DNA of 64,000 nucleotides from Rhodothermales bacterium (GTDB taxonomy: Bacteria > Bacteroidota > Rhodothermia > Rhodothermales > JAHQVL01): NCBI GenBank assembly GCA_041391505.1, contig JAWKNW010000004.1, positions 292,540 through 356,539 on the forward strand, in the 5' to 3' direction. Both the position numbers and the translations under genes were made by a program. Position 1 is the stretch's first letter; each line of letters starts with the position of its first letter. Positions 287-64,000 of this stretch are shown here, piece by piece. The notes beneath the pieces were generated by a model. That model ran no database searches and was not told where the DNA came from. It worked only from the letters and a program-made list of their open reading frames with translations.

Positions 287-350
287 CGAAAAATCCACCA
301 ACGACTGCCAAAAATTACCTCTCGTAGCGGAGGGAGACGCCGGGTATACT
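287..350 (+). promoter_or_regulatory. Candidate activator-dependent promoter module (copy A)
   Basis: Block CGAAAAATCCACCAACGACTGCCAAAAATTACCTCTCGT (287-325) holds direct repeats AAAAATCCACC (289-299) and AAAAATTACC (310-319), starts 21 bp apart. After a 19-nt spacer comes the -10-like TATACT (345-350). A near-identical block with identical spacing lies at 14241-14304. Confidence 0.55.
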
Positions 351-588: not shown

Positions 589-1371
589 ATGACGATATTC
601 GAAAAACTCTTCCGGCTCGACGGTAAGGCCGCGCTGGTCACCGGCGGATACGGCGGCTTCGGCGCCGCGGTGTGCGAAGGCCTCGCCGAAATGGGCGCCG
701 GCATCGCCGTGGCCGGCCATAACGCCGAAAAAGCCGAACACTTTGCCGGGCAGCTGCGGGCCAAGGGCGTCAATGCAATCGCCGCCCCCTTCGACGCCTG
801 CTCGATGGAGGATACCCACCGCATGACCGACGCCGTGGCGAAGCATTTCGGCCGGCTGGACGTCCTGGTCAACACCGTCGGCGGCAACACGCACGCTGAA
901 CTGGCCGATGAGGTCACCGAGGAAGGCTTCGGCAAGGTGCTCGAGCTCAATCTCACCAGCGCCATGTACCAGGCGCAGGCCGCGGCGAAACACATGAAGG
1001 CCTCCGGGGGCGGCAAGCAGGTGCATTTCGGCTCCGTGCGCGGCCTGCTGGCGCTGCGCGGCAAGGGCTTCGCGGCGTATTGCGCGTCCAAGGCCGGCCT
1101 CACCGTGCTCTGCAAACAGCTCGCCGGCGAGTGGGCGCCGGACAAGATCAATGTCAACGTCCTTTCGCCCACGTTCATCCGCACCGAGCAGTCGGCGCGG
1201 TTCCTGGCGGACAAGGCGTTTTACGACAGCGTCGTCTCGCGCATCCCCGTCGGGCGCGTCGGCGAGACGCTGGACATCGTCGGCGCCACGCTGTTTTTTG
1301 CGTCGCCGGCGGCCGACTTCATCACGGGGCAGACGCTGTATCTCGATGGCGGCCTCACCGCCACCCAATAG
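589..1371 (+). CDS. Short-chain dehydrogenase/reductase (SDR) family oxidoreductase
   Basis: 260 aa. N-terminal TGGYGGFG (TGxxxGxG) nucleotide-binding motif, catalytic YCASK (YxxxK), typical C-terminal GQTLYLDGG. Confidence 0.9.
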
Positions 1372-1387
1372 CGACCAACAGACCATC

Positions 1388-2848
<1,461 letters not shown>

Positions 2849-2851
2849 AGG

Positions 2852-2874
2852 CCTTCATCGTGCAACGATGAAGG
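2852..2874 (+). terminator. Stem-loop right after the mmsA stop (weak terminator candidate)
   Basis: CCTTCATCG (2852-2860), loop TGCAA, CGATGAAGG (2866-2874): perfect 9-bp stem followed by GTTTC. The T-run is short. Confidence 0.4.
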
Positions 2875-2902
2875 GTTTCAGGTTCAAGGTTTCAGGTTCA
2901 AG
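2875..2902. repeat. Tandem 14-mer GTTTCAGGTTCAAG x2 (GGTTCAAGG-type intergenic repeat family)
   Basis: Exact tandem duplication 2875-2888 / 2889-2902. Related GTTCAAGG / CCTTGAAC motifs recur at 43434-43464, 47411-47422, 47879-47910 and 59936-59982. Confidence 0.8.
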
Positions 2903-2967
2903 GTATACTGCGAAGAGGCCTTTCCGGCTCTCGGAAGTTGTTCTCATCATCAACCCGCCCAACGATT

Positions 2968-3933
2968 ATGGATCGCCGAACGTTTTTGCAACGGAGTAGT
3001 CTGGTGGCGCTGACGGCCCCCCTGTGGTCGTGCGCGCCGAAGGAATCTGGCACCGAAGCGGCCGCCACCGGCGCGTCGAATGACGCGGCGAAGCTGGCGC
3101 GTATCGGCATCACGACCGTTTGCATCCGCTCGTATTTCGAGAAGACGCGCACGATGCTGGCGGAGCCCAACTCGGCTCCCACCATCAACCTCGAAGCCGC
3201 GCCGCAGTTTATCTACGACCACTTCGGCCTCCGGAACGTGGAGGTGTGGGATTATCAGTTCGACGACCTGTCGCTCGCCTATTGCGAGCGGGTTCGTGCC
3301 GCGGCGGAGAAGATCGGTTCGCGCATCGCCAACATCCAGGTGGATGTGCTCGCGGACCTGTCGGATCCGAACCCCACCCAGCGCGCGCTGGGCGTGACCC
3401 AGGCGAAGGAGTGGGTCGACCGCGCGGTGGCGATGGGCGTGCCGAACTTCCGCGTCAACACCGGCGGCAAGGAAGGCCAGGAATTCAAGCTCGCCGAGAC
3501 GGTCGAATCGTTCCGGCAGATCGCCGACTACGCCGGCGAAAAGGGCGTGATCGTCCTCGTCGAAAACCATGTCGGGTTCAGCATGGACATCGACAAGGTG
3601 GTGGCCATCGTCTCGACGCTCAACCATCCGAACTGCAAGACGCTCGCGGACTACGGCAACACGCCGGCGGGCACGACGCAGGACCGGATCGACGGGCTCA
3701 AGAAGCTCTTCCCGTGGCTGCAGTTCGTGTCGGCCAAGGGCACGGGCTTCAACGATCAGCTGGAGCATAGCGACTACGACTTCGCCGCGCTCGTGCGCGC
3801 CACGGAGGAGTCGGGGTACCGGGGCATCTATTCGATCGAGATGTGGCCCGACGCCGACAGCCAGCCGCCGGCCGACCCGATCAAGGCCGGCAACTGGATG
3901 AAGGATCAGCTCCTTGCCAACATCAGCGCGTGA
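2968..3933 (+). CDS. TAT-exported xylose-isomerase-like TIM-barrel protein (sugar phosphate isomerase/epimerase family), paralog 1
   Basis: Start chosen at MDRRTFLQRSS (twin-arginine motif), followed by ...LWSCAP (possible lipobox Cys). Body shows family-typical VLVENH and a YRGIYSIEMW C-terminal region. Confidence 0.8.
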   Translation: MDRRTFLQRSSLVALTAPLWSCAPKESGTEAAATGASNDAAKLARIGITTVCIRSYFEKTRTMLAEPNSAPTINLEAAPQFIYDHFGLRNVEVWDYQFDDLSLAYCERVRAAAEKIGSRIANIQVDVLADLSDPNPTQRALGVTQAKEWVDRAVAMGVPNFRVNTGGKEGQEFKLAETVESFRQIADYAGEKGVIVLVENHVGFSMDIDKVVAIVSTLNHPNCKTLADYGNTPAGTTQDRIDGLKKLFPWLQFVSAKGTGFNDQLEHSDYDFAALVRATEESGYRGIYSIEMWPDADSQPPADPIKAGNWMKDQLLANISA

Positions 3934-3943
3934 GGTGCGGCGC

Positions 3944-4894
3944 ATGAACCGTCGCGTCTTTATTCAGCAGAGCGGCCTCGTCGCGGCTTCCGCCGCGTTC
4001 TGGTCGTGTTCGCCGGGCGATGCCCCCTCGGCGGCGGCCTCGGCCGATGCGAAGCTCGCCCGTATCGGGATCACCACGGTGAGCCTGCGGTCGCGCTTCG
4101 CGCAGACCCACGAGATGATGGCGGAGCCCTACGAGGGGCCGATGCTGAATCTGGAAACAGCGCCGGCGTACATCGCCGGCGAGCTGGGGCTGCACAATGT
4201 CGAGGTCTGGGAGCGCCAGTTCGACGATACCTCCATCGCCTACTGCGAGCGGGTGCGGGCCGCCGCCGAGCGGGCCGGCTCCCGGATCACGAACATCCAG
4301 GTGAGCGGGCTGGCGAATCTGTCGTCGATGGACGCCGACGAGCGGGCGCAGGGCGTTACCCAGGCCAGGGAGTGGGTCGACCGCGCCGTGGCGATTGGCG
4401 CGCCCAGCATCCGTGTCGACGCCGGCGGACGCGCGGGCGACCCGTTCGATCTTGCGGTGACGGTCGATTCGTATCGCCGGATCGTCGATTATGCGGGTAG
4501 CAAGGGCGTCGTCATCCTCGTCGAAAACCACAGCGGCTTCACGCGGGACATCGATACGGTCGTCGCCATCATCGAGGCCATCGAAAGCCCGAACTGCCGC
4601 GCCCTGGCCGACTACGGCAACACGCCGGCGGGAAGCATCGAGGACCGGATCGCCGGGTTGCAGAAGATGCTGCCGTACCTGGCCTTCGTCTCGGCGAAGG
4701 GGACGGGGTTCGACGAGCAGATGAGGCATTCCGACTACGACTTTGCCGCGCTCGTCCGCGCCACCGAGGCCTCCGGGTACCGGGGTATTTATTCGATCGA
4801 GATGTGGCCCGACGCCGATAGTCCGCCGCCGGCCGATCCGCTGCGTGCCGCGGGCTGGATGAAGGACCAGCTGATCGCCAACATCGGCGCCTGA
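3944..4894 (+). CDS. TAT-exported xylose-isomerase-like TIM-barrel protein, paralog 2
   Basis: Start at MNRRVFIQQSG (twin-arginine), then ...FWSCSP. Collinear with the upstream paralog along the full length and roughly two-thirds identical by eye. Only 10 bp separate the two genes. Confidence 0.8.
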   Translation: MNRRVFIQQSGLVAASAAFWSCSPGDAPSAAASADAKLARIGITTVSLRSRFAQTHEMMAEPYEGPMLNLETAPAYIAGELGLHNVEVWERQFDDTSIAYCERVRAAAERAGSRITNIQVSGLANLSSMDADERAQGVTQAREWVDRAVAIGAPSIRVDAGGRAGDPFDLAVTVDSYRRIVDYAGSKGVVILVENHSGFTRDIDTVVAIIEAIESPNCRALADYGNTPAGSIEDRIAGLQKMLPYLAFVSAKGTGFDEQMRHSDYDFAALVRATEASGYRGIYSIEMWPDADSPPPADPLRAAGWMKDQLIANIGA

Positions 4895-5005
4895 CGCGCG
4901 CGAAAGATTCGCCAACGACTCCCGAAGATGCGCACTCGTGGCGCCGGGCGTCGGCCAGTACTATTGCCGGGGCGCGTCTGCCGCGCCCATCATTCCGTAC
5001 ATGCC

Positions 5006-6220
5006 ATGGCTAACATTGTCATCATCGGTGCGCTCGATACGAAAGGCACCGAGGTTCTTTTCGTCAAGCAACAGATCGAGGCCCGCGGGCATCGCACCGT
5101 CGTCATCGACTCCGGCGTCCTCGGCGACCCGCTTTTCCGGGCGGACGTGACGCGGCAGGAAGTCGCCTCGGCCGGCGGCGCCGATCTCGAAAAGCTGCGC
5201 GCCGCCAACGACCGCGGCCAGGCCGTGATCGCCATGACGCAAGGCGCGGCCGCCATCGTGCAGCGGCTCCACGAACAGGGCAAGGTCGACGCCATCATCG
5301 GGATGGGCGGCGGCGCCGGCACGACGGTGGGCACCGCGGCGATGCGGGCCCTGCCGCTCGGCATCCCGAAGGTGATGGTCTCCACCCTGGCGAGCGGCGA
5401 TACGCGGCCTTTCGTGGGCGTGAAGGACATCATGATGGTGCCGTCCATCGTCGACATCAGCGGCCTGAACGGCATCGCGCGCGGCGTGTTCACGCGCGCC
5501 GCCGCCGCCGTATGCGGGATGGTCGAAGCCGATATTCCCGAGGGCGACGACAAGCCGACGATCACGGCGTCGATGTTCGGCAACACGACCAAATGCGTCG
5601 AGCGGGCGCGGACGCACTTCGAGGCGGCCGGCTACGAGCTGCTGGTCTTCCACGCCGTCGGGTCGGGGGGGATGACGATGGAGAGTCTGATCGAATCCGG
5701 CCAGATCGCCGGCGTCTTCGATGTGACGCTCACCGAATGGGCGGACGAGCTGCTCGGCGGCGTCATGTCCGCCGGCCCCACGCGGCTCGATGCCGCGGCC
5801 CGCAGCGGGACGCCGGCGGTGTACGCCCCCGGCTGCGTCGACATCGTCAATTTCTGGGAGCCCGACTCGGTGCCGGTGGCGCTCCGCGACCGCCGGATCT
5901 ACCACCATAATGCCAAACAAACGCTGGTCCGCACCGACATCGACGACAACGCGAAGCTCGGGAAGATCTTCGCCGAGAAGTTCAACGCGGCGACCGGGCC
6001 GGTGGCGGTATATCTCCCGCTCAAGGCCGTTTCCGTGATTTCGGAGCCCGGCGGCCCCTACCACTGGCCGGAGGCCGACGCGGCCCTGTTCGACGCCCTG
6101 CGCTCGAACCTCCGCAAGGACATCCCGGTCTACGAATTCGACACCATCATCAACGACCCCATCTTTGCCGACGCCATGGCCGAAGGCCTGCTGGCGATGA
6201 TCGAAGATGGAAGATCGTAA
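5006..6220 (+). CDS. UPF0261 / Tm-1-like ATP-binding domain protein
   Basis: Start at MANIVIIGALDTKGTE... is the characteristic N-terminus of the UPF0261 family. 404 aa. Confidence 0.75.
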   Translation: MANIVIIGALDTKGTEVLFVKQQIEARGHRTVVIDSGVLGDPLFRADVTRQEVASAGGADLEKLRAANDRGQAVIAMTQGAAAIVQRLHEQGKVDAIIGMGGGAGTTVGTAAMRALPLGIPKVMVSTLASGDTRPFVGVKDIMMVPSIVDISGLNGIARGVFTRAAAAVCGMVEADIPEGDDKPTITASMFGNTTKCVERARTHFEAAGYELLVFHAVGSGGMTMESLIESGQIAGVFDVTLTEWADELLGGVMSAGPTRLDAAARSGTPAVYAPGCVDIVNFWEPDSVPVALRDRRIYHHNAKQTLVRTDIDDNAKLGKIFAEKFNAATGPVAVYLPLKAVSVISEPGGPYHWPEADAALFDALRSNLRKDIPVYEFDTIINDPIFADAMAEGLLAMIEDGRS

Positions 6221-6324
6221 ATCGCAAATCGTTAATCGCAAAATGCCCTGGGCAGTATCGGGACGTATGTACCAGTCGCCAGACACTACATGATTTACGA
6301 TTTGCGATTTTACGATTTGCGATG
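6214..6324. repeat. AT-rich heptad (AATCG[CT]A) inverted repeat
   Basis: Left arm ATCGTAAATCGCAAATCGTTAATCGCAAAA (6214-6243); right arm TGATTTACGATTTGCGATTTTACGATTTGCGATG (6291-6324). AAATCGCAAATCGT (6219-6232) is perfectly complementary to 6297-6310. Confidence 0.75.
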
Positions 6325-6359
6325 CCTCAGTCCCTTTTTCCAAGCAAACGATCTGCCCT

Positions 6360-7079
6360 ATGAGCCGTCTCATCGACCTTTCCATGCCTGTCCATCCCGA
6401 CATGATCACGTTTCCGCGGGTACCGCCGCCGGTGATGGTGATCTATGAAACCTGGGAGGAGTTCGCCGAGCGGATCGGCGCCGCGAAACACGGGGCCACG
6501 TGGCTCACCGGCAGCTACTACGTGACGACGAGCGACCACGTGGGCACGCACGTCGACGCCGTCAAGCACCTCCGGGGTCCGAAGTCGCCCGGGCCGGAAG
6601 GCATCCCGCTCGAGTACTGCTACAGCGACGGGGTCGTGCTGGACTTCCGCCACAAGGAAAAAGGCTACGGCATCACGCCCGAGGACATCGACGAGGCGCT
6701 CGCGAAGATCAATTATACCTTGAAGGAGAAGGACATCGTCCTGATCCAGACCGGCGCTTCGGCCTACAACACCGAACAGCGGTACCTCACGGACCATTGC
6801 GGCATGACAGGGGAAGCGACGCGGCACCTCATCAAGCAGGGCGTACGGATGATGGGCACCGATGCGGTCACGTTCGATCCGCCCGTGTGGGCGATGTTCG
6901 AGCGGAAGAAGTTCTGGGAGGCGCACCGGGTGATGCTGGACGAGGATTACTGGCATATGGAGAACCTGATGAACCTCGACCAGCTTCCCCCGCACGGCTT
7001 CAAGCTCTCCGTCTTCCCGGTCAAGTGGGTCGGCACGACCGCCGCGCCGATCCGCGCCGTGGCCATCCTCGAAGGGTGA
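6360..7079 (+). CDS. Cyclase-family protein (kynurenine-formamidase-like metal hydrolase fold)
   Basis: 239 aa. LIDLSMPV...ITFP N-terminus and the HVGTHVDAVKH metal-binding motif typical of the putative cyclase family. Confidence 0.8.
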   Translation: MSRLIDLSMPVHPDMITFPRVPPPVMVIYETWEEFAERIGAAKHGATWLTGSYYVTTSDHVGTHVDAVKHLRGPKSPGPEGIPLEYCYSDGVVLDFRHKEKGYGITPEDIDEALAKINYTLKEKDIVLIQTGASAYNTEQRYLTDHCGMTGEATRHLIKQGVRMMGTDAVTFDPPVWAMFERKKFWEAHRVMLDEDYWHMENLMNLDQLPPHGFKLSVFPVKWVGTTAAPIRAVAILEG

Positions 7080-7100
7080 CGTTCAGCAACCGGTAACGTT

Positions 7101-7937
7101 ATGGAATTCAACGGCCCCGAGTGGCACGCGCCGACCACGCTCGACGCCGCGCTGGCGATGCGCGCCGAGTTGCAGGATGAAGCTACCGTCGTCGCCGGCG
7201 GGACCTTCGTCGGCACGCTGATGAACATCGGGTTCATGGCGCCGGCGGCGCTGCTGAGCCTGCGCGGCGTGCCGGGGCTCGCGTACATCCGCGCGGACGG
7301 CGAGCTGCGCATCGGTCCGATGACCACGCACCGCGCCATCGAGCTGTCGCCCGAGATCCGCCGGCACTGGCCGGCCCTCGCGCAGGCGTTTTCGGTGGTG
7401 GCCAGCCCGCGCGTCCGCAACATGGCGACCGTCGGCGGCGTCCTCGCCGACGCCGACTATGCTTCCGATCCGCCGGCGATGTTTCTCGCGCTCGGCGCCC
7501 GCGCCGTGCTGCGGGGGCCCCGGGGCGAGCGGGAGGTGCCGGTGGAGGACTTCATCCTCGGCTACTACGAAACCGCCCTCGCGCCGGACGAGCTGTTGAC
7601 CGAGGTGCGTGTGCCCGCCGGCGGCGAGGCCGGCGTGTACCGCAAGTTCCGCACGCGTTCGAGCGAAGACCGCCCCTGCGTCTCCGTCGCCGCCGTCAAC
7701 CGGGGCGGCGAGCTTCGGGTGGCCGTCGGCGCCGTGGCGAGCCGTCCCCAGTATTTCCCCGAGGTCTGCGCGCTCGCCCGGGGCCGGCGTGTCGACGCCG
7801 ATCTGGCCCGCGAGATTGGCGAGGCCTACGCGCAGCGCATCGACCCCATTTCCGATTCCAGAGGCTCGTCGGAGTACCGACGCCGCGTCATCGCCGTCGA
7901 GGTGCGCCGCGCCCTGGAGGAGCTGTACCATGGCTGA
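7101..7937 (+). CDS. Molybdenum hydroxylase FAD-binding (medium, CoxM-like) subunit
   Basis: 278 aa. Pattern ...VVAGGTFVGTLMN...RNMATVGG...SEYRRRV is typical of xanthine dehydrogenase family FAD-binding subunits. Confidence 0.85.
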   Translation: MEFNGPEWHAPTTLDAALAMRAELQDEATVVAGGTFVGTLMNIGFMAPAALLSLRGVPGLAYIRADGELRIGPMTTHRAIELSPEIRRHWPALAQAFSVVASPRVRNMATVGGVLADADYASDPPAMFLALGARAVLRGPRGEREVPVEDFILGYYETALAPDELLTEVRVPAGGEAGVYRKFRTRSSEDRPCVSVAAVNRGGELRVAVGAVASRPQYFPEVCALARGRRVDADLAREIGEAYAQRIDPISDSRGSSEYRRRVIAVEVRRALEELYHG

Positions 7938-10050
7938 TCCCCGTTCCGCCGGCGCGCTCCGGTATGCGCAGGACCTCGAGATGGAGGGCATGCTTCACGC
8001 ACGCGTGCTCCGCTCGCCCTACGCGCACGCCCGGATCGTGCGCATCGATACCTCGTCCGTGCCCGACTCGGTCGTGGTGCTCACGCGCGACGACATCCGC
8101 GATCTGAACCGCTACGGGTGCCAGATCCAGGACGAAACCGTCGTGGCCGTCGACGAGGCGCTGTTCGCCGGCGCCCCGGTGGTGGCCGTCGCCGCCGCCA
8201 CGCGGCGCGAGGCCGACGAGGCGCTGCAGTACATCGACGTCGACTACGACGAGCTGCCGGCGGTGTTCAACGAGATGGACGCCATCGCGCCCGGCGCGCC
8301 GCTCGTCCATCCCCGCCATTACATCTCCGAGAACGACGCCGCCTACTTCGGGATGCGGCCGATCGACGGCACCAACATCTGCCACCGGTTCCGCATCCGG
8401 CACGGCGACATCGACGCCGGCTTCGCCGGCAGCGACGTCATCGTCGAAGAAGTGTTCACGACCGACAGCGCGGCGCACGTGCCCATGGAGCCGCACGCCT
8501 CGCTGGCCCGCTGGCACGACGGCCGGCTCGAGGTCTGGACCGGCAACCAGACGCCGTTCAACCTGCGGATGGACCTGGCCGGCATCTTCGGCCTCAAGCC
8601 CGAGCAGGTCCGCATCGTCGTCCCGCCCCTCGGCGGGTCTTTCGGCGCGAAGACGTTCGTGCGGACGGAGGCCATCGCGGCGGCGCTGGCGCGCAAGGCC
8701 GGCCGGCCGGTCAAGATCGTCCTGGAGCGCGCCGAAGAGTGGCAGACCATGAACCGCCACCCCGCCACGCTCTGGATGAAGATCGGCGCGAAGCGCGACG
8801 GCACGCTCGTGGCGAAACACGTCATGTGCTGGGCGAACACCGGCGCGCACGCGGATAGCGGCCCGGGCGTCGCCCAGAAGATGGGCTATGCCTCGCCGGG
8901 GCCGTACCGCATCCCGAACGTGTGGGTCGATTCCCACTGCGTGTACACCAACACCCCTCCCAACGGCGCCTACCGTGGCTACGGGCAGATGCAGTGCATC
9001 TGGGCGTCGGAGCGGCTGATGGACATGCTGGCGCACAAGCTCGGGATGGACCCCCTCGAGCTGCGCCTCAAGAACATCCTCCGCGAGGGCGACACGTATT
9101 GCACCGGCGAGACGATGCACGATGTCGCCTTCGAGGAGTGCCTGCGCCGGAGCGCGGAGGCGATAGGCTGGGATTCTTCCGATGATCACCGCGGCAAGGG
9201 GCTCTGCGTCCTGATGAAAGGGATGCAGACCCCCAGCCGCGCGTCGATTGGCATCGAAAAAGAGGACGACGGGACGTACACCATCCGCTGCGCCACCATC
9301 GAGATGGGCCAGGGCGCCCGGCCGGCGATCCGGCAGATGGCGGCGGAGCTCCTCGGCGTGCCCATGGACCGGGTGACGTTTCCGGACCCCGACACCGACA
9401 TCGTGCCGTACGATACACGCACCACGTCGAGCCGCTCGACCCACGTGATGAGCCGCGCGCTGGTCGAGGCCGTGCGGGCGCTGGAGCTGGACGGCCGAAA
9501 GGGCGTCGGCGAGGTGACGGACAAGGGGGGGCTGAACGTGGATACCGGGCAGGGGATCGCCTCGTCGCACTGGCACCAGGGCGCCGCCGGCGCCGTCGTC
9601 GACGTGGATCGCGAGACGGGCAAGCTGCACGTGCGCCACATTCACGCCTCCATCTATGCCGGCAAGGTGGTGAGTCGGCCGGCGGCCGAACTGCAGAACG
9701 AAGGCTCCATGATCATGGGGCTGGGCACGGCGCTGTTCGAGGCCATCCAGTTCGACGGCGGGCAGGTGACCAACGCCAACCTGTCGGATTACAATGTTCC
9801 GAGTTTCCACGACCTGCCGCGGATCACGCACGACCTCGTCGAGCGCGAGGGCGCGCAGGTGTACGGCCTCGGCGAGACGGCGCTGCCGCCCGTGCCGGCG
9901 GCCATCGGCAACGCGCTGGCGTCGCAGGGCATCCACCAGACGGCGCTGCCCATGACGGCAGAGCGCGTCATCCACGCCCTCGACGGCGGGGACGGCCCCG
10001 CGCGGCTGGCGGCCGTCCGGAAACTCATCGAGACGCACCCGCGATCGTAA
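7930..10050 (+). CDS. Molybdopterin-binding large subunit of a xanthine dehydrogenase/aldehyde oxidase-family hydroxylase
   Basis: In-frame ATG at 7930 overlaps the upstream stop (ATGGCTGA, 7930-7937). 706 aa. RVLRSPYAHARI, GGSFG, GAYRGYG and GLGETALPPV motifs. Confidence 0.9.
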   Translation: MADPRSAGALRYAQDLEMEGMLHARVLRSPYAHARIVRIDTSSVPDSVVVLTRDDIRDLNRYGCQIQDETVVAVDEALFAGAPVVAVAAATRREADEALQYIDVDYDELPAVFNEMDAIAPGAPLVHPRHYISENDAAYFGMRPIDGTNICHRFRIRHGDIDAGFAGSDVIVEEVFTTDSAAHVPMEPHASLARWHDGRLEVWTGNQTPFNLRMDLAGIFGLKPEQVRIVVPPLGGSFGAKTFVRTEAIAAALARKAGRPVKIVLERAEEWQTMNRHPATLWMKIGAKRDGTLVAKHVMCWANTGAHADSGPGVAQKMGYASPGPYRIPNVWVDSHCVYTNTPPNGAYRGYGQMQCIWASERLMDMLAHKLGMDPLELRLKNILREGDTYCTGETMHDVAFEECLRRSAEAIGWDSSDDHRGKGLCVLMKGMQTPSRASIGIEKEDDGTYTIRCATIEMGQGARPAIRQMAAELLGVPMDRVTFPDPDTDIVPYDTRTTSSRSTHVMSRALVEAVRALELDGRKGVGEVTDKGGLNVDTGQGIASSHWHQGAAGAVVDVDRETGKLHVRHIHASIYAGKVVSRPAAELQNEGSMIMGLGTALFEAIQFDGGQVTNANLSDYNVPSFHDLPRITHDLVEREGAQVYGLGETALPPVPAAIGNALASQGIHQTALPMTAERVIHALDGGDGPARLAAVRKLIETHPRS

Positions 10051-10055
10051 CCATC

Positions 10056-10502
10056 ATGAACGTACGATTTACCCTCAACGGCACCCCGACCGAGGTGGAC
10101 GTCCGCGCCGACGAGATGCTGCTCGACGTCCTGCGCGACCGGCTGGGCTTTCCGAGCGTCCGCGAGACGTGCAGCATCGGCGTGTGCGGCTCCTGCACCG
10201 TCCTGATCGACGGCGAGCCGGTGTCCAGCTGCATCTACCTGACGCCGATGGCCGAAGGCCGGGCGATCACGACGATCGAAGGGCTGGGCGGCGATCACCC
10301 CGTCCAGCGCGCGTTCGAGGAGGCGCACGCGTTCCAGTGCGGCTACTGCACGCCGGCGATGATTCTGACCACCAAGCGGCTCCTGGAGGAAACCCCGCAT
10401 CCGACGGACGATGAGATCGACCTCGCGCTGAGCGGCAATCTCTGCCGGTGCGGCTGCTACGTCAAGATCCGCGATGCCGTCAAGCTGGCGGCGGGGAGAT
10501 GA
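10056..10502 (+). CDS. [2Fe-2S]-binding small subunit (CoxS-like) of the molybdenum hydroxylase
   Basis: 148 aa. Two Cys clusters: CSIGVCGSCTV and QCGYCTPAM...CRCGCY. Confidence 0.9.
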   Translation: MNVRFTLNGTPTEVDVRADEMLLDVLRDRLGFPSVRETCSIGVCGSCTVLIDGEPVSSCIYLTPMAEGRAITTIEGLGGDHPVQRAFEEAHAFQCGYCTPAMILTTKRLLEETPHPTDDEIDLALSGNLCRCGCYVKIRDAVKLAAGR

Positions 10503-10583
10503 ACGGTCGTGAGCGCCCTCTGGGCGCGGTCAGGGGTCATCGGTCACTGATCGTCCTGAAACTTCGATGTCTTCTCGACCGAA

Positions 10584-10676
10584 CCCTCGATCACATCGAG
10601 GGGAAGCGGAGAGACCTCCCGAAGAGTGGCGCTACGTTGATTGTGGAATACCGCCATCCTTTGGGAGGTCCCTCTG
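10584..10676. repeat. Structured intergenic element (two adjacent hairpins; GACCTCCC/GGGAGGTC core)
   Basis: CCCTCGAT-CAC-ATCGAGGG (10584-10602). GACCTCCCGAAG (10613-10624) pairs with CTTTGGGAGGTC (10659-10670) with one G-U. The same GACCTCCCGA / TCGGGAGGTCC core occurs in the 32586-32751 element. Confidence 0.6.
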
Positions 10677-10810
10677 CTCCGGTCCTGCTTTGCAGGCCCT
10701 GCGGTCGGGACGACAATCATTTTTTTACTGAGAACCTGCGATCCTTCGACGCCGGCGGCAACCGCCGCCGCCGCTCAGGACAGGCCTCCAACCTGTAACC
10801 TGCAACCCCT

Positions 10811-11104
10811 ATGTCCTACGTCGTCGTAGCGACCTGGCGCGCCAAGCCAGGGAAAGAAGCGTTTATCGAAAACATCGTCCGGACGATGGCTCGGCTGTCC
10901 ACCACGGAGGAGCCGGAGACCATCCAGTTCACGGCGCAGCGGTCGGTGGACGATCCCGCCTCGTTCCTGCTGTACGAGGTCTATACCTCCGAGGCCGGCT
11001 TCGAGGCGCACAAGGAAACCGAGCATTTCAAGGAGTACGTACTCGGGCAGGCGCTGCCGAATCTGGCGCACCGCGAACGCGCGATCTACGAAACGCTCGA
11101 TTGA
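10811..11104 (+). CDS. Antibiotic-biosynthesis-monooxygenase (ABM) domain protein, YgiN-like
   Basis: 97 aa; ...FLLYEVYTSEAGFEAHKETEHFKEY... is the typical ABM/quinol-monooxygenase pattern. Confidence 0.75.
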   Translation: MSYVVVATWRAKPGKEAFIENIVRTMARLSTTEEPETIQFTAQRSVDDPASFLLYEVYTSEAGFEAHKETEHFKEYVLGQALPNLAHRERAIYETLD

Positions 11105-11109
11105 TCGGG

Positions 11110-11817
11110 ATGGCACAGGGAGACAGCTTGCCGGTGGCGGTGCATCTGGTTCGTCACGGCCGGGTCGCTTCGCATCGGGGCGACATACCGATCACGGAGG
11201 AGGGGCGGGTCGAGATCGCGGCGGCGGGCCGCGGGCTGGCCGTCGGGCTGCGGCGCGACGAGGACGTTCATTTTTTGACCACCCCGACCCGGCGGACGAA
11301 AGAGACGGCCGACGTGCTCCGCGCGTCGATGCGCGCGGCGCACGGAGAAGGCGCCGGCTTCCTCGAGCCCCGCGAGGAGTGGGCGATCCGGAACCCCGAC
11401 CTGTTTCTGGCGGGCCGGCGTGTGGAAATGGTCAGCACCCCCGAAGCGATGGCCGGCCAGATCCCCGAGACCGGCATCGACGCCGCCGGCGTGGACGCCG
11501 TCGCGTTTTTCCATGCGTTTTTTCGGAGTCCGGACCGCATCGGCTACTGGATGGCCCAGCCCGATCCGCCCGGCGAGGATGTGACGGCGGTGGCGCGGCG
11601 CATCGTTGCATTCTGTATGAGCCTGTTGTACGTTCCAACGCACCGCCGGAGGCGCTTCGTGTGCGTGACGCATTCGCCGGTGCTCCGTGCCGTACTGCAG
11701 CACTATACCCACCAGGATCCTGGGGAGCCGGAATACGGCGAGTCGATCGACCTCCACCTGGATCCCCGTGAGAGCACGGTCACCTTCCGTGGCCTCACAA
11801 TGCCCCTTCGGGTTTGA
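11110..11817 (+). CDS. Histidine phosphatase (phosphoglycerate-mutase-like) family protein
   Basis: RHG catalytic motif in VHLVRHGRV near the N-terminus and a later THSPVLRA (His) motif. ATG at 11110 preferred over the TTG at 11101. Confidence 0.7.
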   Translation: MAQGDSLPVAVHLVRHGRVASHRGDIPITEEGRVEIAAAGRGLAVGLRRDEDVHFLTTPTRRTKETADVLRASMRAAHGEGAGFLEPREEWAIRNPDLFLAGRRVEMVSTPEAMAGQIPETGIDAAGVDAVAFFHAFFRSPDRIGYWMAQPDPPGEDVTAVARRIVAFCMSLLYVPTHRRRRFVCVTHSPVLRAVLQHYTHQDPGEPEYGESIDLHLDPRESTVTFRGLTMPLRV

Positions 11818-11892
11818 AAAAAGCCCGGTTTCACGTCACGGATGGTAGCGCTTCGCGTGTGCCGTCCTTCACCAAAGTCGGAAGAGCGAATT

Positions 11893-13137
11893 ATGCATTC
11901 GAACCTGACCAGTAGGCTCAGCCTGTTATCATTCCTCCAGTTTTTTGTATGGGGGGCCTGGTATACGAGCATCGCGGTGTACATGTCGACCGTGGGGATG
12001 GGGACGGTGACGTTCTGGGCGTTCACGGCGCAGCCCATCGGCGCGTTGATTTCGCCCTTTTTCCTGGGTCTGATTGCAGACCGGTATTTCAGCACGGAAA
12101 AGGTGCTGGGCGTGATGCACCTGCTGAGCGGCATGTTCCTGCTGCTGGCGCCTCAGTTTGAAGGGCAGCCGGTGCTGTTCATCGCGATGATCATGTTGCA
12201 CCAGCTGGCCTACACGCCGACGCTCGGCCTGTCGAACTCGCTGGCGTTCCATCACATCCCGGATCCCGAGAAGGACTTCCCAAAGATCCGCGCCTGGGGC
12301 ACGTTCAGCTGGATATTCGCCGGCCTGATCATGTTTCCGTTTATCCTGAAGCCGCTGGCCGGCGGCGGCGTCCCCGAACAGACGCCGATGCCGCTCTACG
12401 CGGCCGGCATCGCGGGCATCCTGCTGGGGCTGTACTCCTTCACGCTGCCGCATACGCCGCCTCCGGCCGCCGGCCAGAAGGTGTCGGTCCGCAGCCTGCT
12501 CGGCATCGACGCGTTCCAGCAACTGAAGAGCCCGTCGTTCATCGCGTTCATCGTCAGCTCGATGCTCATCTGCATCCCGCTCGCCGCCTATTACAACTTC
12601 ACGCAGCTGTTCCTCGGCGCGACCGGCGTGGAAAACATCGCGGCCACGCAAACGCTCGGCCAGGTGTCGGAGATGGTCTTCATGTTGTTGATGCCGCTCT
12701 TCTTCCGCCGCCTCGGCGTGAAGTGGATGCTCCTCGTGGGGATGCTGGCGTGGGCCGTGCGGTATGCGCTGTTCGCCCTGGCGGCGCCGGCCTCGGTGTT
12801 CTGGATGATCGCCGCCGGCATCATCCTCCACGGGATCTGCTACGACTTCTTCTTCGTCACCGGCCAGATCTACATCGACAAGCTGGCGAACCCGTCGATC
12901 CGGTCCCAGGCGCAGGGCATGCTCGTCTTCGCCACGTACGGCATCGGCATGCTGATCGGCGCGCAGCTCTCCGGCCGGCTGTTCAACTCGTTCATGGGCG
13001 ACGGGACGACGCTCTCGATGGCGAGCTGGACGCAGTTCTGGACGATCATGGGGGCGATGGCCATCGTGGTCGCGGTCTTCTTCGGTTTCGTGTTCCGCGA
13101 ACCGAAAAAGGACGCGGTGCCGGCTTCCGGTTCGTGA
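11893..13137 (+). CDS. NupG/XapB-like MFS transporter (nucleoside:H+ symporter family)
   Basis: Start at MHSNLTSRLSLLSFLQFFVWGAWYTS..., which closely parallels the NupG N-terminus (LSFLQF..WG.W). About 12 hydrophobic segments. Confidence 0.8.
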   Translation: MHSNLTSRLSLLSFLQFFVWGAWYTSIAVYMSTVGMGTVTFWAFTAQPIGALISPFFLGLIADRYFSTEKVLGVMHLLSGMFLLLAPQFEGQPVLFIAMIMLHQLAYTPTLGLSNSLAFHHIPDPEKDFPKIRAWGTFSWIFAGLIMFPFILKPLAGGGVPEQTPMPLYAAGIAGILLGLYSFTLPHTPPPAAGQKVSVRSLLGIDAFQQLKSPSFIAFIVSSMLICIPLAAYYNFTQLFLGATGVENIAATQTLGQVSEMVFMLLMPLFFRRLGVKWMLLVGMLAWAVRYALFALAAPASVFWMIAAGIILHGICYDFFFVTGQIYIDKLANPSIRSQAQGMLVFATYGIGMLIGAQLSGRLFNSFMGDGTTLSMASWTQFWTIMGAMAIVVAVFFGFVFREPKKDAVPASGS

Positions 13138-13168
13138 TCGACTGACCGACATACCGCACCGATTTCAG

Positions 13169-13200
13169 AGGGGCGACTCCGGCAGGGGTCGCCCCTTTTA
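13169..13200 (+). terminator. Rho-independent terminator candidate after the MFS transporter
   Basis: AGGGGCGAC (13169-13177) pairs with GTCGCCCCT (13188-13196), followed by TTTTA. Confidence 0.55.
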
Positions 13201-13262
13201 GCGTCGGGCTGTGGGGTTCACGCATACGCTTCGTATCTTGCGGACGCATCCACCGGAGCGCA

Positions 13263-14171
13263 ATGCCAGAACTGATCAATTTTCAACCGACACCCAGCGG
13301 GCCGCCGGTACGCGCGTTTCGGCTAGAGCCGCAGCATACGCAGCAATTCCTGACCCCGCACGCCCATCGTTTCTTCGAAGTCGTGTACTTCGAGGAGCCA
13401 GGCGGCGTGCACCGTCTCGGGGACGAGGTCTGGGAAAGCACCGCCGGCGATTTGCTCATCATTCCGCCGGGGCAGGTGCACGAGTGGGCGGAGGACGTGT
13501 TCGAGAAACAGTCCACCATCTGGATCCTGGAATTCACGGCGTCGGCGCTGGACCCGGACGGCGACGCCGGCGAGTCGCTGCTCGGCATCCTGCTGCATCC
13601 GCTGCTGGTGCCGTTTGCCTTCGGCTCGCAGGAGGGGCCGATGCGGCTCAACGTGCCCGCCTCCCAGCGTTCGGGGTGGGAGACCGCGCTGCGATCGCTC
13701 GAGGCCGAACGCCGCAAGCAGCCTCCCTACTGGCAGGAGGCGGTGAACGCGCTCTTCACGCTGCTGCTCGTCCAGGTCTGCCGGTTTGCCGCCATGGCGC
13801 ATCCGGCGCCGCAGGCGCAGACGCAGCCGCTGCTCAAACAGGTATTCGAGGTGATCGACGCCCGGTATGCGGAGTCGCTTTCGCTCGCCGATGTGGCGAA
13901 GGAAGTCTTCTATTCGCCGGCGCATCTCACCACGACGATCCGCCGGCTGACCGGGCGGACCGTCGGCAACTGGATCATCTGGCGGCGCATCGCGGAAGCC
14001 CGGCATCTGCTGGTGCATACCGACCTGACCATCGCCCAGATCGCCGAGCGCGTGGGGTACACCGACCCCTCGCACTTCGTCCGCCTCTTTCGCCGCGAAG
14101 CCGGCATCTCGCCGGGCGCGTGGCGGGATGCGCACCGGGCTCCCGGGGGAAAAAGAGCCGGCGCGGTGTAA
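13263..14171 (+). CDS. AraC-family transcriptional regulator (cupin-type sensor domain + HTH)
   Basis: 302 aa. N-terminal HAHRFFEVVYF...IPPGQVHEW (cupin-like). C-terminal LSLADVAKEVFYSPAHLTTTIRRLTG...IAERVGYTDPSHFVRLFRREAGISPGAWR (AraC HTH). Confidence 0.85.
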   Translation: MPELINFQPTPSGPPVRAFRLEPQHTQQFLTPHAHRFFEVVYFEEPGGVHRLGDEVWESTAGDLLIIPPGQVHEWAEDVFEKQSTIWILEFTASALDPDGDAGESLLGILLHPLLVPFAFGSQEGPMRLNVPASQRSGWETALRSLEAERRKQPPYWQEAVNALFTLLLVQVCRFAAMAHPAPQAQTQPLLKQVFEVIDARYAESLSLADVAKEVFYSPAHLTTTIRRLTGRTVGNWIIWRRIAEARHLLVHTDLTIAQIAERVGYTDPSHFVRLFRREAGISPGAWRDAHRAPGGKRAGAV

Positions 14172-14240: not shown

Positions 14241-14304
14241 CGAAAAATCCGCCATGTACTACCAAAAATTACCTCTCGTGCGTCTTGACGCCTCCGGGTA
14301 TTAT
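14241..14304 (+). promoter_or_regulatory. Candidate activator-dependent promoter module (copy B)
   Basis: CGAAAAATCCGCCATGTACTACCAAAAATTACCTCTCGT (14241-14279) with direct repeats at 14243-14253 and 14264-14273, 21 bp apart. After a 19-nt spacer comes TATTAT (14299-14304). Same architecture as 287-350. Sits between the AraC gene and the first PQQ gene. Confidence 0.55.
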
Positions 14305-14485
14305 TTCACTGGCTAAACAGGTTTTTCGAACAGGGGTGCGAACGCGTCCTGTCGCGTGCCGTCCCGTGCGATACCCGTCCCTGGCCGCGTGAGGTCGCGC
14401 CGGCTCCAGTGTCGCCTCACGGCACGACGAAGCGACGGCGGAAGACGCGCATTTCGAGCCCATCCCACTCATCATTGCGTGAATC

Positions 14486-16654
14486 ATGAGAGACACCCTG
14501 CGCTTGCCCCTTTACGTGGCACTGGCCGCCTCGCTGCTGGCCGGTTGCGCGCCGAAGCAGCAGGCATTGGATGAATCGTTTTACACCTGGAAGCGCTACG
14601 AGGGCCAGCCCGGCGCGACCCATTTCTCCGCGCTCGACCAGATCAACCGGTCGAATGTAAACCAGCTGCAAGAAGCCTGGCGCTACGAGGCGCCGGATAT
14701 CGCGGCCTTCAACCCGATCGTGATCGACTCGGTGATGTACGCGTTCGGGGACGGCGGCGCCATGGTGGCGCTCGATGCCGCGACGGGGGAGGAATTGTGG
14801 TCGTACCAGAGCCCGCTGCCCGGGGGACGCACCGAGCACGGCGTGGCCTACTGGGAGAGCGCGGACCGGTCGGAACGCCGGCTCCTCTTTTTCCGGGGCA
14901 GCTATTACCTCGTGGCCATCGATGCGCGCACCGGCCAGGCGATCCCCTCGTTTGGCGACAACGGCCAGGTCGACCTCCGCCAGGGGCTCGACATCGACCC
15001 GATGCGCGTGGTGCGCGCCACGGCGCCGGCGCCCGGCGTCATCTATGACGACCTCTACATCCTGGGCTCGGCTCCGGGCGAAGGCTACGCCGCCGGGCCG
15101 GGGCACATCCGCGCCTTCAACGTGCGGACGGGCAAGCAGGTCTGGATCTTCCATACCCTCCCCAAACCCGGCGAATTCGGCTACGAAACCTGGCCGCCCG
15201 GACGCTCCGACGCCGCCGGCGGCGCTAACGCCTGGGGCGGGTTGAGCGTCGATATCGAACGCGGGATGGTGTTCGTTCCGCTGGGATCCGCCAACTACGA
15301 CTTTTACGGGGTGGATCGGCACGGCCAGAACCTCTTCGCCAATTCGCTCGTCGCCCTCGACGCGCGCACCGGCGAGCGGAAGTGGCACTTCCAGACGGTC
15401 CATCACGACCTCTGGGACTACGACCTCACGGCGACGCCCGTCCTCCTGACCATCCAGCGCGATGGCAAGCCGCTCGACATCGTCGCCCAGGCCACCAAAA
15501 CGGGGTTTGTGTTTGCGTTCAACCGCGAGACGGGCGAGCCGCTCTGGCCGATCGAGGAGCGGCCCATGCCGGCGTCCGACATGCCCGGCGAGCAGGCCTG
15601 GCCCACGCAGCCCATCCCGACGAAGCCGGCGCCCTTTATCCCCCAGACCCTGTCGGTGGAAGATTTTAACCCGCACATGCTGGACAGCGACCGGGATTCC
15701 CTCGAGGCGCTCGTCCGGTCGATGGTCTACAAGGGGATGTTCACGCCGCCCGACACGCATCCCACGCTCCAGGCGCCCGGCAACCGGGGCGGGGCGAACT
15801 GGGGTTCGACGGCCGGCGATCCACGCGACGGGACGTTTTTCGTGCTCAGCTACAACATGCCTTCGGTGCTGAAGCTCGAACCCATCTTCGCCGGCGCCGT
15901 GGGCACCGGCGGCTCGTCGTTCGACCAGGGCCAGGCCTTTTATCAGGCGAACTGCCAGATCTGCCACGGCGCCAACCGGCAGGGCCAGCCTCGCGGCGGC
16001 ATTCCGTCGCTGGTCGGCGTCGTCGAGCGCCTGAGCCACGACGACATCCGGCAGCAGATCACGGTCGGCCGCGGCCTCATGCCGGGTTTCCCGCAGATCA
16101 CCCCCGCGCAGTACGACGCCCTGGTGGCGTATCTGGCCAACCCGGAGCTGGCGCTGACGACCGGCCAGCAGCAGGCGACCGACGGCGGATTGACCGGCCG
16201 GCCGGAAGGACCGCAGCGGTACCAGAGCGGCTGGAACCATATTCTCGACAGCCGGGGCGAGCCGGCCATCAAGCCGCCCTGGTTCCGTTTGACGGCGTAC
16301 GACATGGAGACGGGCGACATCGCGTGGCAGGTGCCGATCGGCGAGGTGGATCATCTGGTGGCGGAGGGCATCGAAAATACGGGCACCTCCACCTGGGTCC
16401 GCGGCGGCCCGTCCGTCACGGCTGGCGAACTGATCTTTGTCTCCGCCGGCGAGAAGCTGTGGGCGCACGATCGTGAAACAGGCGCCCTGCTCTGGTCCAC
16501 GCCGTTGCCGGGCATCGGCGAGGGCATCCCCACCATTTATGAGGCCGAGGGCCGCCAGTTCGTCGTCGTGGCGGTGTCGCGCGGCGGCCAGGGGTCCCCG
16601 CCGGCCGTCAGGCCGCGAACGCCCGCCTACATCGCCTTCGCACTTCCGGAATAG
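14486..16654 (+). CDS. Lipoprotein PQQ-dependent (Gcd-like) beta-propeller dehydrogenase with embedded cytochrome c domain (paralog 1)
   Basis: 722 aa. Lipobox LLAGC. Gcd-type motifs ALDAATGEELW, NAWGGLSVD, LFANSLVALDARTGERKWHFQTVHHDLWDYDL, AWPTQPIP. Heme c motif CQICH at 15953-15967 followed by GLMPGF. Propeller-type repeats resume after it (AYDMETGDIAWQ, HDRETGALLW). Confidence 0.85.
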   Translation: MRDTLRLPLYVALAASLLAGCAPKQQALDESFYTWKRYEGQPGATHFSALDQINRSNVNQLQEAWRYEAPDIAAFNPIVIDSVMYAFGDGGAMVALDAATGEELWSYQSPLPGGRTEHGVAYWESADRSERRLLFFRGSYYLVAIDARTGQAIPSFGDNGQVDLRQGLDIDPMRVVRATAPAPGVIYDDLYILGSAPGEGYAAGPGHIRAFNVRTGKQVWIFHTLPKPGEFGYETWPPGRSDAAGGANAWGGLSVDIERGMVFVPLGSANYDFYGVDRHGQNLFANSLVALDARTGERKWHFQTVHHDLWDYDLTATPVLLTIQRDGKPLDIVAQATKTGFVFAFNRETGEPLWPIEERPMPASDMPGEQAWPTQPIPTKPAPFIPQTLSVEDFNPHMLDSDRDSLEALVRSMVYKGMFTPPDTHPTLQAPGNRGGANWGSTAGDPRDGTFFVLSYNMPSVLKLEPIFAGAVGTGGSSFDQGQAFYQANCQICHGANRQGQPRGGIPSLVGVVERLSHDDIRQQITVGRGLMPGFPQITPAQYDALVAYLANPELALTTGQQQATDGGLTGRPEGPQRYQSGWNHILDSRGEPAIKPPWFRLTAYDMETGDIAWQVPIGEVDHLVAEGIENTGTSTWVRGGPSVTAGELIFVSAGEKLWAHDRETGALLWSTPLPGIGEGIPTIYEAEGRQFVVVAVSRGGQGSPPAVRPRTPAYIAFALPE

Positions 16655-16721
16655 GTTTGCCGGGCTGTTCATGCCCCTCGCTCCGGATCTGCCTTTTTGT
16701 ACCATCCCTAGGAGATCAGAC

Positions 16722-18662: not shown

Positions 18663-18717
18663 CCGGCGCGGCGCGCGGTGTGATTATCCCGTATTCAACC
18701 AGTCACAGGCTTTTGCC

Positions 18718-20721: not shown

Positions 20722-20898
20722 GTTCTATCTGGAAAAGCCGGCAGACCGCGTGTATCCCGACCCGAATTCAGGGTTCGACGCGGTGTTGAAGGTTCCCTGA
20801 ATGCCCCGGGGCCACCCGAGCGATTTTCAAGAAAGGCCTGATTCCGGGGGCGGCCCATGTCGGTTGCCGGCCCTCGTTTTATACCCCGCTCATCCTGT

Positions 20899-23082: not shown

Positions 23083-23130
23083 GTGGAACGTTTCGTGACA
23101 TCCATATCCTTTGCGGCACATTGCCGGCAC

Positions 23131-25284: not shown

Positions 25285-25331
25285 CCCTCCATCCCTTTCA
25301 ACCACACGATCAACCCTCTGCGAGGCATCTT

Positions 25332-43255: not shown

Positions 43256-43339
43256 TGCCCAGGGCGGGACTCGAACCCGCACGCCCTTGCGAGCACAAGA
43301 TTTTGAGTCTAGCGCGTCTACCAATTCCGCCACCCGGGC
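43256..43339 (-). tRNA. tRNA-Leu (anticodon CAA), type II with long variable arm
   Basis: Minus-strand sequence GCCCGGGTGGCGGAATTGGTAGACGCGCTAGACTCAAAATCTTGTGCTCGCAAGGGCGTGCGGGTTCGAGTCCCGCCCTGGGCA. It has a 7-bp acceptor stem, the conserved Leu-type D-arm GGCGGAATTGGTAGACGC, anticodon loop CTCAAAA and T-arm GGTTCGAGTCC. The 3' flank reads CCG, so CCA is not fully encoded. One U-U mismatch in the anticodon stem. Confidence 0.85.
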
Positions 43340-63478: not shown

Positions 63479-64000
63479 CTATCTCGTTACGAAAAATCCA
63501 ACCACCCCCGCCGGACCCGCGGGCAGGTTTTTTCCCGCGACCGGGATCCTCACCCCCAGTTCGATGACCCCGGCCCCTACGTCCCATCCCACACTCGGCA
63601 TCGTCTGAAGCATCTCCCGGCGAGCCGACGGGATCGTGAAACCCTGGATCCGCGGCGCATCGCCCTTCCATCCCTCCAGGATGACCTTCCAGACGAACCG
63701 GTCCCGGCGACCGCCGGCGGACAAAAAAGCAAACCATTCATCGCCCGGCTTCCGCGCGGCAGCCCGATTCAGCGCCCGCCACCGGCGGCCGGCCCAGCCG
63801 GCGAGGTAGAGCGATTTCGGGTACAGCGAATGGCCGATTTCCAGCATCAGCTCCCAGTCCCGCTGCCCCTCGCCGAGCGGGATGATTTCGGCGTCCACCG
63901 GGAAATGTCCTCCCGGCAGCTTCACGCCGCCGCGGAGCGCGATCGGCACGTTGCGGCCGGCAAGCTGGGGCGAGATGCGCAGGTAAAATCGCGGGTCGCC
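63479..64000 (-). CDS. Hypothetical protein, possibly an outer-membrane beta-barrel (5' end outside the window)
   Basis: The reading frame stays open from 63479 to the window edge (the track reports only the internal Met at 63949). Composition is beta-strand-like. The family call is very tentative. Confidence 0.35.
   Translation of the reverse strand, partial: GDPRFYLRISPQLAGRNVPIALRGGVKLPGGHFPVDAEIIPLGEGQRDWELMLEIGHSLYPKSLYLAGWAGRRWRALNRAAARKPGDEWFAFLSAGGRRDRFVWKVILEGWKGDAPRIQGFTIPSARREMLQTMPSVGWDVGAGVIELGVRIPVAGKNLPAGPAGVVGFFVTR

Follow-up and report, generated by a model that had tools for sequence, protein, structure and literature searches.

A conserved promoter module as the putative docking site of an adjacent AraC-family activator in a Rhodothermales gene cluster

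We asked what a short block of DNA, repeated ahead of separate operons in a Rhodothermales MAG, might do there, and which protein might read it. The DNA analysed, called the window below, is a stretch of 64,000 nucleotides with 65% G+C. An earlier note on it had described a promoter/operator module in two copies 14 kb apart (A and B), each with two direct repeats, a spacer and a -10-like hexamer, and had proposed that an AraC-type activator binds it and so ties the two downstream operons into one regulon.

Read directly, module A (287-350) is CGAAAAATCCACCAACGACTGCCAAAAATTACCTCTCGT-AGCGGAGGGAGACGCCGGG-TATACT and module B (14241-14304) is CGAAAAATCCGCCATGTACTACCAAAAATTACCTCTCGT-GCGTCTTGACGCCTCCGGG-TATTAT. 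The description of their anatomy stands in full: positions 287-325 and 14241-14279 are identical at 34 of 39 positions, with 5 mismatches; the A5T tracts begin at 289 and 310 in A and at 14243 and 14264 in B, 21 bp apart in both; and a 19-nt spacer ending in CCGGG leads to the hexamer in each copy. Pairwise comparison of the two regions confined the likeness to the module itself, the flanking intergenic DNA showing no alignment. A degenerate 39-mer allowing up to three mismatches matched only A and B within the 64 kb and was matched in none of 100 dinucleotide shuffles, which excludes a chance origin of the likeness.

The count of two did not hold, as the window contains a third copy, C, at 4901-4964 (CGAAAGATTCGCCAACGACTCCCGAAGATGCGCACTCGTGGCGCCGGGCGTCGGCCAGTACTAT), adjoining the UPF0261/cyclase/Mo-hydroxylase genes on their upstream side. 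An nhmmer profile built from ten copies found outside the window (described below) and run on the window matched B with 42.7 bits (E=2e-12), A with 37.6 bits (E=8e-11) and positions 4899-4965, module C, with 30.5 bits (E=1.4e-8). Exactly these three copies were recovered, the next match reaching only 7.3 bits. The longest open reading frame for UPF0261 begins at 4928, inside module C, which leaves the stretch 4928-5005 in question. The start of this gene is most likely the ATG at 5006 (MANIVIIGALDTKG) rather than 4928; from there the NCBIfam UPF0261 model aligns starting at residue 1, and automatic annotation may over-extend the gene. With the gene starting at 5006, module C stays intergenic.

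Table 1. Features of the window and module copies in related loci. HS1 and HS2 are the distal and proximal half-sites; predicted starts, and positions relative to them, assume a start about 7 nt past the hexamer. Percentages give the identity to the window protein by which a locus was fetched.
Feature	Position	Strand	Remarks
Module A HS1, CGAAAAATCCACCA	287..300	+	about -70..-57 from predicted start
Module A HS2, CAAAAATTACCTCTCG	309..324	+	about -48..-33, over the would-be -35 place
Module A -10-like hexamer, TATACT	345..350	+	predicted start near 357
Operon A	589..4894	+	downstream of module A
SDR	589-1371	+	operon A
MMSDH-like aldehyde dehydrogenase	about 1380-2848	+	operon A
Two xylose-isomerase-like TIM-barrel genes	2938-3933, 3914-4894	+	operon A
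Module C HS1, CGAAAGATTCGCCA	4901..4914	+	begins 7 nt past the stop of the second TIM-barrel gene (TGA 4892-4894)
Module C HS2, CGAAGATGCGCACTCG	4923..4938	+	
Module C -10-like hexamer, TACTAT	4959..4964	+	predicted start near 4971
Operon C	5006..13137	+	UPF0261, cyclase, CoxM/L/S-like Mo-hydroxylase, ABM, His-phosphatase, nucleoside:H+ symporter
AraC-family regulator	13263..14171	+	N-terminal cupin (AraC_binding) and C-terminal double HTH
Module B HS1, CGAAAAATCCGCCA	14241..14254	+	
Module B HS2, CAAAAATTACCTCTCG	14263..14278	+	
Module B -10-like hexamer, TATTAT	14299..14304	+	predicted start near 14311
Operon B	14486..27221	+	three PQQ quinohaemoprotein dehydrogenases, three DUF1080 (3-keto-disaccharide hydrolase)/FG-GAP proteins
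Copy in L002/L001/L132			fetched by AraC, 73%; gene order as in the window; 13 nt past araC stop, before PQQ dehydrogenase
Copy in L139, first			fetched by AraC, 74%; past araC, before PQQ dehydrogenase
Copy in L139, second			on the contig of the first copy; before DUF1080/FG-GAP gene
Copy in L140/L141			fetched by AraC, 69%; past araC, before PQQ dehydrogenase
Copy in L005			fetched by AraC, 69%; past araC
Copy in L142			fetched by AraC, 67%; past araC, before DUF3500 gene
Copy in L137			fetched by SDR, 73%; 5 nt past araC stop, before SDR
Copy in L135/L136			fetched by SDR, 78%; before SDR
Copies in L138, two			fetched by SDR, 73%; before CoxG, and before DUF1080-SDR

The three modules divide a long run of co-oriented genes (Table 1). 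Ahead of module A lies the tail of a CoxG-like gene, ending at 270; hexamer A is separated from the SDR ATG at 589 by 238 nt; between hexamer B and the PQQ dehydrogenase ATG at 14486 lie 181 nt. The Mo-hydroxylase genes had previously been placed, as a possibility, in the SDR operon; they have a module copy of their own, at 4901-4964 upstream of UPF0261. The gene order of operon C is the same in L001/L002, and araC, after a 125-bp gap, may be its last gene. No module occurs in that gap (13138-13262, between symporter and araC), and transcription from module C may run on into araC, which would amount to positive autoregulation, or araC may have an unrecognised promoter of its own.

Operon B contains a tandem triplication, with PQQ quinohaemoprotein dehydrogenase genes at 14486, 20857 and 23083 and DUF1080/FG-GAP paralogues at about 16437, 18595 and 25107. 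Together with the TIM barrels, its content suggests a periplasmic oxidative (3-keto) glycoside pathway in which PQQ enzymes replace the usual flavin/NAD oxidoreductases. General context on 3-keto-glycoside pathways is available (PMC8121099, PMC10628242); a literature search on this particular gene combination returned nothing directly relevant. The sole Rfam match in the window is a tRNA gene at 43256-43339 on the minus strand.

Protein searches with the AraC and SDR sequences, followed by contig look-ups, yielded related loci from at least seven other lineages. These metagenomic contigs held 10 further copies, giving 13 with the window and about eight lineages: three in the window, one each in L002/L132, L005, L135/L136, L137, L140/L141 and L142, and two each in L138 and L139. 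The 13 copies align without gaps apart from one 1-nt deletion, with the consensus CGAAAAATCCGCCA-N9-(c)AAARAT-N3-CTCTCG-N~20-gGTAnnnT. HS1 and HS2 are conserved over 14 and 16 bp, respectively; the half-site spacing, taken between the two A-rich cores, is 21 bp in 13/13 copies, and the distance from HS2 to the hexamer is constant in 12 of the 13. Mean information per column is 1.5 bits in HS1, 1.2 in HS2 and 1.7 in the -10 element; the spacers reach 0.35-0.44 bits and the flanks about 0.2. Mean pairwise identity falls in the same order (boxes 72%, spacers 35%, flanks 27%). Such a profile is that of a protein footprint combined with a core promoter element, and not that of a recently copied repeat.

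All copies are intergenic and co-oriented with the next gene, 40-320 nt ahead of its start, the exception being L005 (about 1.1 kb). The genes downstream form one set: SDR, PQQ dehydrogenase, DUF1080, CoxG, UPF0261 and DUF3500. Across lineages the junction that bears the module varies (SDR, PQQ dehydrogenase, CoxG, DUF1080, DUF1080/FG-GAP or DUF3500) and always lies within this set, so that the element belongs to a regulon and not to a single gene. The proposal that both operons form one regulon thereby gains comparative support, as orthologues of both are preceded by the module elsewhere: SDR in L135/L136 and L137 and, in truncated form, L134, and the PQQ dehydrogenase in L002, L139 and L140.

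Three of the related loci have peculiarities of their own. In L134 (GCA_012974905.1; SDR ortholog 83%), the truncated module at 1815-1863 (CGAAAGATCCANNACGG...CCACCCGGTATTATTTC) precedes SDR in a record with two N, and the truncation probably arose when the assembly collapsed the two half-sites into one. In L005, the module and the next TIM-barrel gene are separated by about 1.1 kb (3720-4795) of lower G+C with no convincing gene, which may represent the remains of an insertion or a gene that escaped recognition; a called 247-aa open reading frame (3569-4312) with no Pfam match overlaps the module. A weak module-like match in L135 (3222-3287; 8.6 bits, E=0.3), just upstream of Mo-hydroxylase genes, may be a degenerate copy.

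The profile separates these copies from background. With all 13 copies included, true copies score 28-58 bits, and nothing else in the window or the related loci exceeds the 14 bits of the truncated L134 copy, the remaining noise in those loci staying at or below 8.6 bits; the best score in 889 kb of unrelated DNA is 15.9 bits. This negative control consisted of 120 loci with chance pattern matches (L007-L126), none of them Rhodothermales and none with a -10 at the right distance. A metagenome scan with the exact pattern returned seven stretches, of which L132 alone is real, from the same organism as L001; the six others were rejected as low-G+C chance matches. The exact pattern is too strict for diverged copies, and those came from the protein-guided look-ups. 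Across the window and about 130 kb of related loci, no module lay within a gene or on the minus strand, and the profile scan found no further module inside operon B (14486..27221).

These distributions bear on the possibility that the block is a dispersed repeat (REP/MITE-like) or a transcribed leader RNA element that sits between genes by happenstance. Three copies within 15 kb, all intergenic, are what such an element could produce. Dispersed repeats of this kind come in many copies of either orientation, unconnected with gene starts and frequently palindromic. This does not fit the window, where all three copies in 64 kb are on the plus strand, intergenic and just upstream of genes. Furthermore, every copy faces the downstream gene, orthologous copies have diverged in their spacers while boxes and geometry are kept, and the module holds no terminal inverted repeats or internal hairpin and has no Rfam match. 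A shared riboswitch or leader RNA was likewise rejected, the leaders ranging from about 35 to 320 nt with no common sequence and no Rfam match. We regard a repeat or leader element as a most improbable explanation.

What kind of promoter does the module resemble? A -10 hexamer of the form TAnnnT occurs in 13/13 copies (TATACT, TATTAT, TACTAT, TATTCT, TATTGT, TATCAT or TAACAT). A sigma-70 consensus scan, which assumes sigma-70 rules for Rhodothermales, called no -35/-10 pair in A, B or C. Between the end of HS2 and the hexamer lie 20 nt, and the bases at the -35 position (TCGTAG, TCGTGC, TCGTGG) are unlike TTGACA. The absence of a called -35 is expected if the promoter is activator-dependent. 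Primary promoters of the Bacteroidota type carry TTTG near -33 and TAnnTTTG at -7. We rejected this type for the module, given TAnnnT in all 13 copies and no TTTG at -33; TTTC follows the hexamer only in B and L002, with unrelated bases in the other eleven copies. This is indirect evidence, read from sequence, that the lineage may use an ordinary TAnnnT -10 and not the Bacteroidota -7 motif. A literature search for Rhodothermus or Rhodothermales promoter rules found no source.

A reading without any dedicated activator would make the A-tracts UP-element-like or bending parts, read by the alpha subunits of polymerase, of a strong constitutive promoter shared by these operons. A UP element is an A/T-rich tract between -38 and -59 for which specific G+C flanks are unnecessary, and the proximal UP subsite of Escherichia coli covers the region of the proximal A-tract (about -47..-42), which thus falls within UP range. 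A5T tracts are rare in DNA of 65% G+C, and a phasing of 21 bp would sum their bends. Against this, the conserved boxes include G+C-rich flanks (CG...CCGCCA and CTCTCG), which are dispensable for a UP element, and the distal tract, at about -68, is farther upstream than UP elements usually reach. The module also has no -35, occurs with one gene set only and is linked to araC. A constitutive promoter of this kind is very unlikely.

The geometry instead points to an activator site of the AraC type abutting the -35 position, an architecture that the earlier note had recognised in two copies and that is kept in 13 copies from about eight lineages. The araC gene (13263-14171) does lie upstream of copy B, with a gap of 69 nt. 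Its product is 100% identical to MEZ4699958.1, from a Rhodothermales MAG, and combines an N-terminal AraC_binding cupin domain (PF02311, E=1.4e-9, residues 22-75) with a DNA-binding domain at residues 212-289 (PF12833, E=3e-24; PF00165, E=1.7e-19). An N-terminal domain for ligand binding and dimerisation is typical of the sugar- or aromatic-sensing subgroup. The RhaS model aligns over residues 20-290, and PDB matches are to the DNA-binding domains of AraC, SoxS, MarA and Rob. Among named families the protein comes closest to AraC, RhaR, HpaA and RhaS, with scores far under each cut-off. Both HTH regions contain residues invariant among 17 orthologs, in line with what a conserved DNA target would predict.

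In the window and six other lineages, the module begins 5-184 nt past the stop codon of an AraC ortholog (67-100% identity). Five of these lineages were fetched via AraC (L002, L005, L139, L140 and L142, at 67-74%) and L137 via SDR. As araC is present by construction in the AraC-fetched loci, only the presence of the module counts as a test there: it adjoins araC in 5/6 such lineages. The exception is L006, whose AraC ortholog (61%) is followed by no detectable module in the 456-bp intergenic region at 3596-4051. The specificity of this regulator may have diverged; it is the most distant ortholog and precedes a SusC/SusD-like pair (TonB-dependent receptor and SusD). The SDR-guided loci are independent of AraC, and L137, among them, has araC directly upstream of the module.

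Might a different, non-adjacent transcription factor, for example of the OmpR/PhoB type, bind the module, with araC regulating something else or co-regulating? Helix-phased direct repeats and a missing -35 are typical of PhoB-type sites too, the modules of L135/L136 and L138 come without araC in the available DNA, and L006 has an AraC ortholog yet no module. The contigs without araC are, however, short or cut, and in the window and six other lineages araC is the immediate upstream neighbour of a module. The period of 21 bp with units of about 15 bp is that of AraC/XylS dimers, whereas pho boxes repeat every 10-11 bp, and the conserved cluster contains no response-regulator gene. We consider it unlikely that another factor is the binder. 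The conserved module of about 65 bp is, on its sequence and context, most likely the putative docking site of the adjacent AraC-family activator.

Characterised members of the family show how such a site is used. At the AraC araI1-araI2 site of E. coli pBAD, the direct-repeat half-sites have a centre-to-centre distance of 21 bp and the proximal one overlaps the -35 region; AraC itself is a cupin sensor with a double HTH. Our module and regulator share all of this: 21-bp direct-repeat half-sites, the proximal one at the predicted -35 region, and a cupin plus double HTH protein. They differ in that the window offers only one imperfect HS1-like sequence (516-530) as a looping candidate and no evident CRP site, and in that the regulator scores under the AraC equivalog cut-off (84 against 208 bits).

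XylS, which acts at Pm of the Pseudomonas putida TOL plasmid, binds two 15-bp direct repeats, each composed of a box A and a box B (PMC5481539). The likeness extends to a two-domain AraC-family activator, two homologous same-face direct repeats of about 15 bp, a proximal repeat overlapping the polymerase site and a promoter that depends on the activator (PMC5481539), the last two of which are predictions from sequence in our case. The Pm sequence, TGCA-N6-GGTA, is unrelated to the C-AAARAT-... found here, and protein similarity to XylS is limited to family domains. In addition, Pm uses sigma-32/sigma-38 and the host here belongs to the Rhodothermales, where one regulator would serve three promoters in one cluster. 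MtlR is an AraC/XylS-type sugar-responsive activator of the Pseudomonas fluorescens mannitol promoter PmtlE. Its two blocks of 15 bp span -72..-58 and -50..-36, and an A-tract adjoins the first repeat (PMC4514859); these positions are nearly equal to those predicted for our half-sites. Unlike our module, PmtlE shows a recognisable -35 on the downstream side of its site. The two also differ in motif sequence and in phylum, and MtlR binding was demonstrated by EMSA and footprinting, the module here being known from sequence.

We therefore think it probable, from sequence comparison, that the module belongs to the AraC/XylS class of activator-dependent promoters, that the adjacent AraC protein binds it as a ligand-activated dimer and that the three promoters form one regulon. 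Two monomers of the 13263-14171 protein would bind the two direct-repeat sites, which lie two helical turns apart: distal CGAAAAATCCGCCA (about -70..-57) and proximal cAAARAT-N3-CTCTCG (about -48..-33), if transcription starts about 7 nt past the hexamer. The proximal site would take the place of the absent -35 hexamer, from where the activator would bring RNA polymerase to the TAnnnT -10 at its fixed distance. Promoter A would drive the SDR, aldehyde dehydrogenase and TIM-barrel genes, promoter C the UPF0261, cyclase, Mo-hydroxylase and symporter genes and possibly araC too, and promoter B the PQQ-dehydrogenase and DUF1080-FG-GAP genes, joining the whole cluster of about 27 kb into one regulon. 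We infer AraC as the binder, and likewise activation, the transcription starts and the inducer.

The half-sites are not equivalent. They share mainly C-AAARAT-N3-C, and their 3' parts differ (CCGCCA against CTCTCG), which makes the direct repeat imperfect; possibly the proximal site must also suit polymerase. Sites of the AraC/XylS class measure about 15-17 bp and are bipartite, with a box A and a box B in successive major grooves. Within HS2, AAARAT and CTCTCG are about 9-10 bp apart centre to centre, and HS1 is one contiguous block, CGAAAAATCCGCCA; conservation alone assigns no contacts to either.

Isolated HS1-like sequences occur at 516-530 in leader A (CCGAAAAACCACCC, one base missing), at 25625-25640 inside an FG-GAP gene (CGAAAAATCCGGCGAC) and at 63490-63505 near the window end (CGAAAAATCCAACCAC). 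The last two were rejected as O2-like looping partners, their 15-16 bits being about chance level in 128 kb. The first needs an indel to match and lies about 228 bp downstream of module A HS1; it could be an AraC O2-like looping partner. The 244-nt SDR leader also folds better than its shuffles (z = -3.46) and contains a hairpin at 379-468, with 25-nt arms (379-403 and 444-468) that are 88% complementary, 17 bp of them in a perfect run, around a 40-nt loop. No repeat of the arm occurs elsewhere in the window. A classical terminator was rejected, as no T-run follows; the hairpin could serve RNA stability or attenuation, or it could be a site for a protein.

The module is a known regulatory design, newly seen in this uncultured lineage. 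Its mechanism is textbook and would not surprise a specialist in bacterial transcription, and the gain is a practical one: the module brings together, in one regulon under a named candidate regulator, about 27 kb of oxidative sugar-metabolism genes, most of them uncharacterised, gives a short list of candidate promoters, binding sites and start sites for testing, and provides a motif usable for regulon prediction in Rhodothermales MAGs. More tentatively, and with rather less than even confidence, the module and its AraC may constitute an undescribed lineage-wide Rhodothermales regulon for periplasmic PQQ-dependent oxidative breakdown of glycosides or nucleosides, with promoter copies gained and lost at different junctions by lineage and araC possibly ending its own target operon in a positive feedback. 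Such a route would combine quinohaemoprotein dehydrogenases, DUF1080/FG-GAP proteins, xylose-isomerase-like TIM barrels, Mo-hydroxylase and UPF0261/cyclase. If so, the motif would be a handle for the full regulon and for the inducer of a pathway with mostly uncharacterised enzymes.
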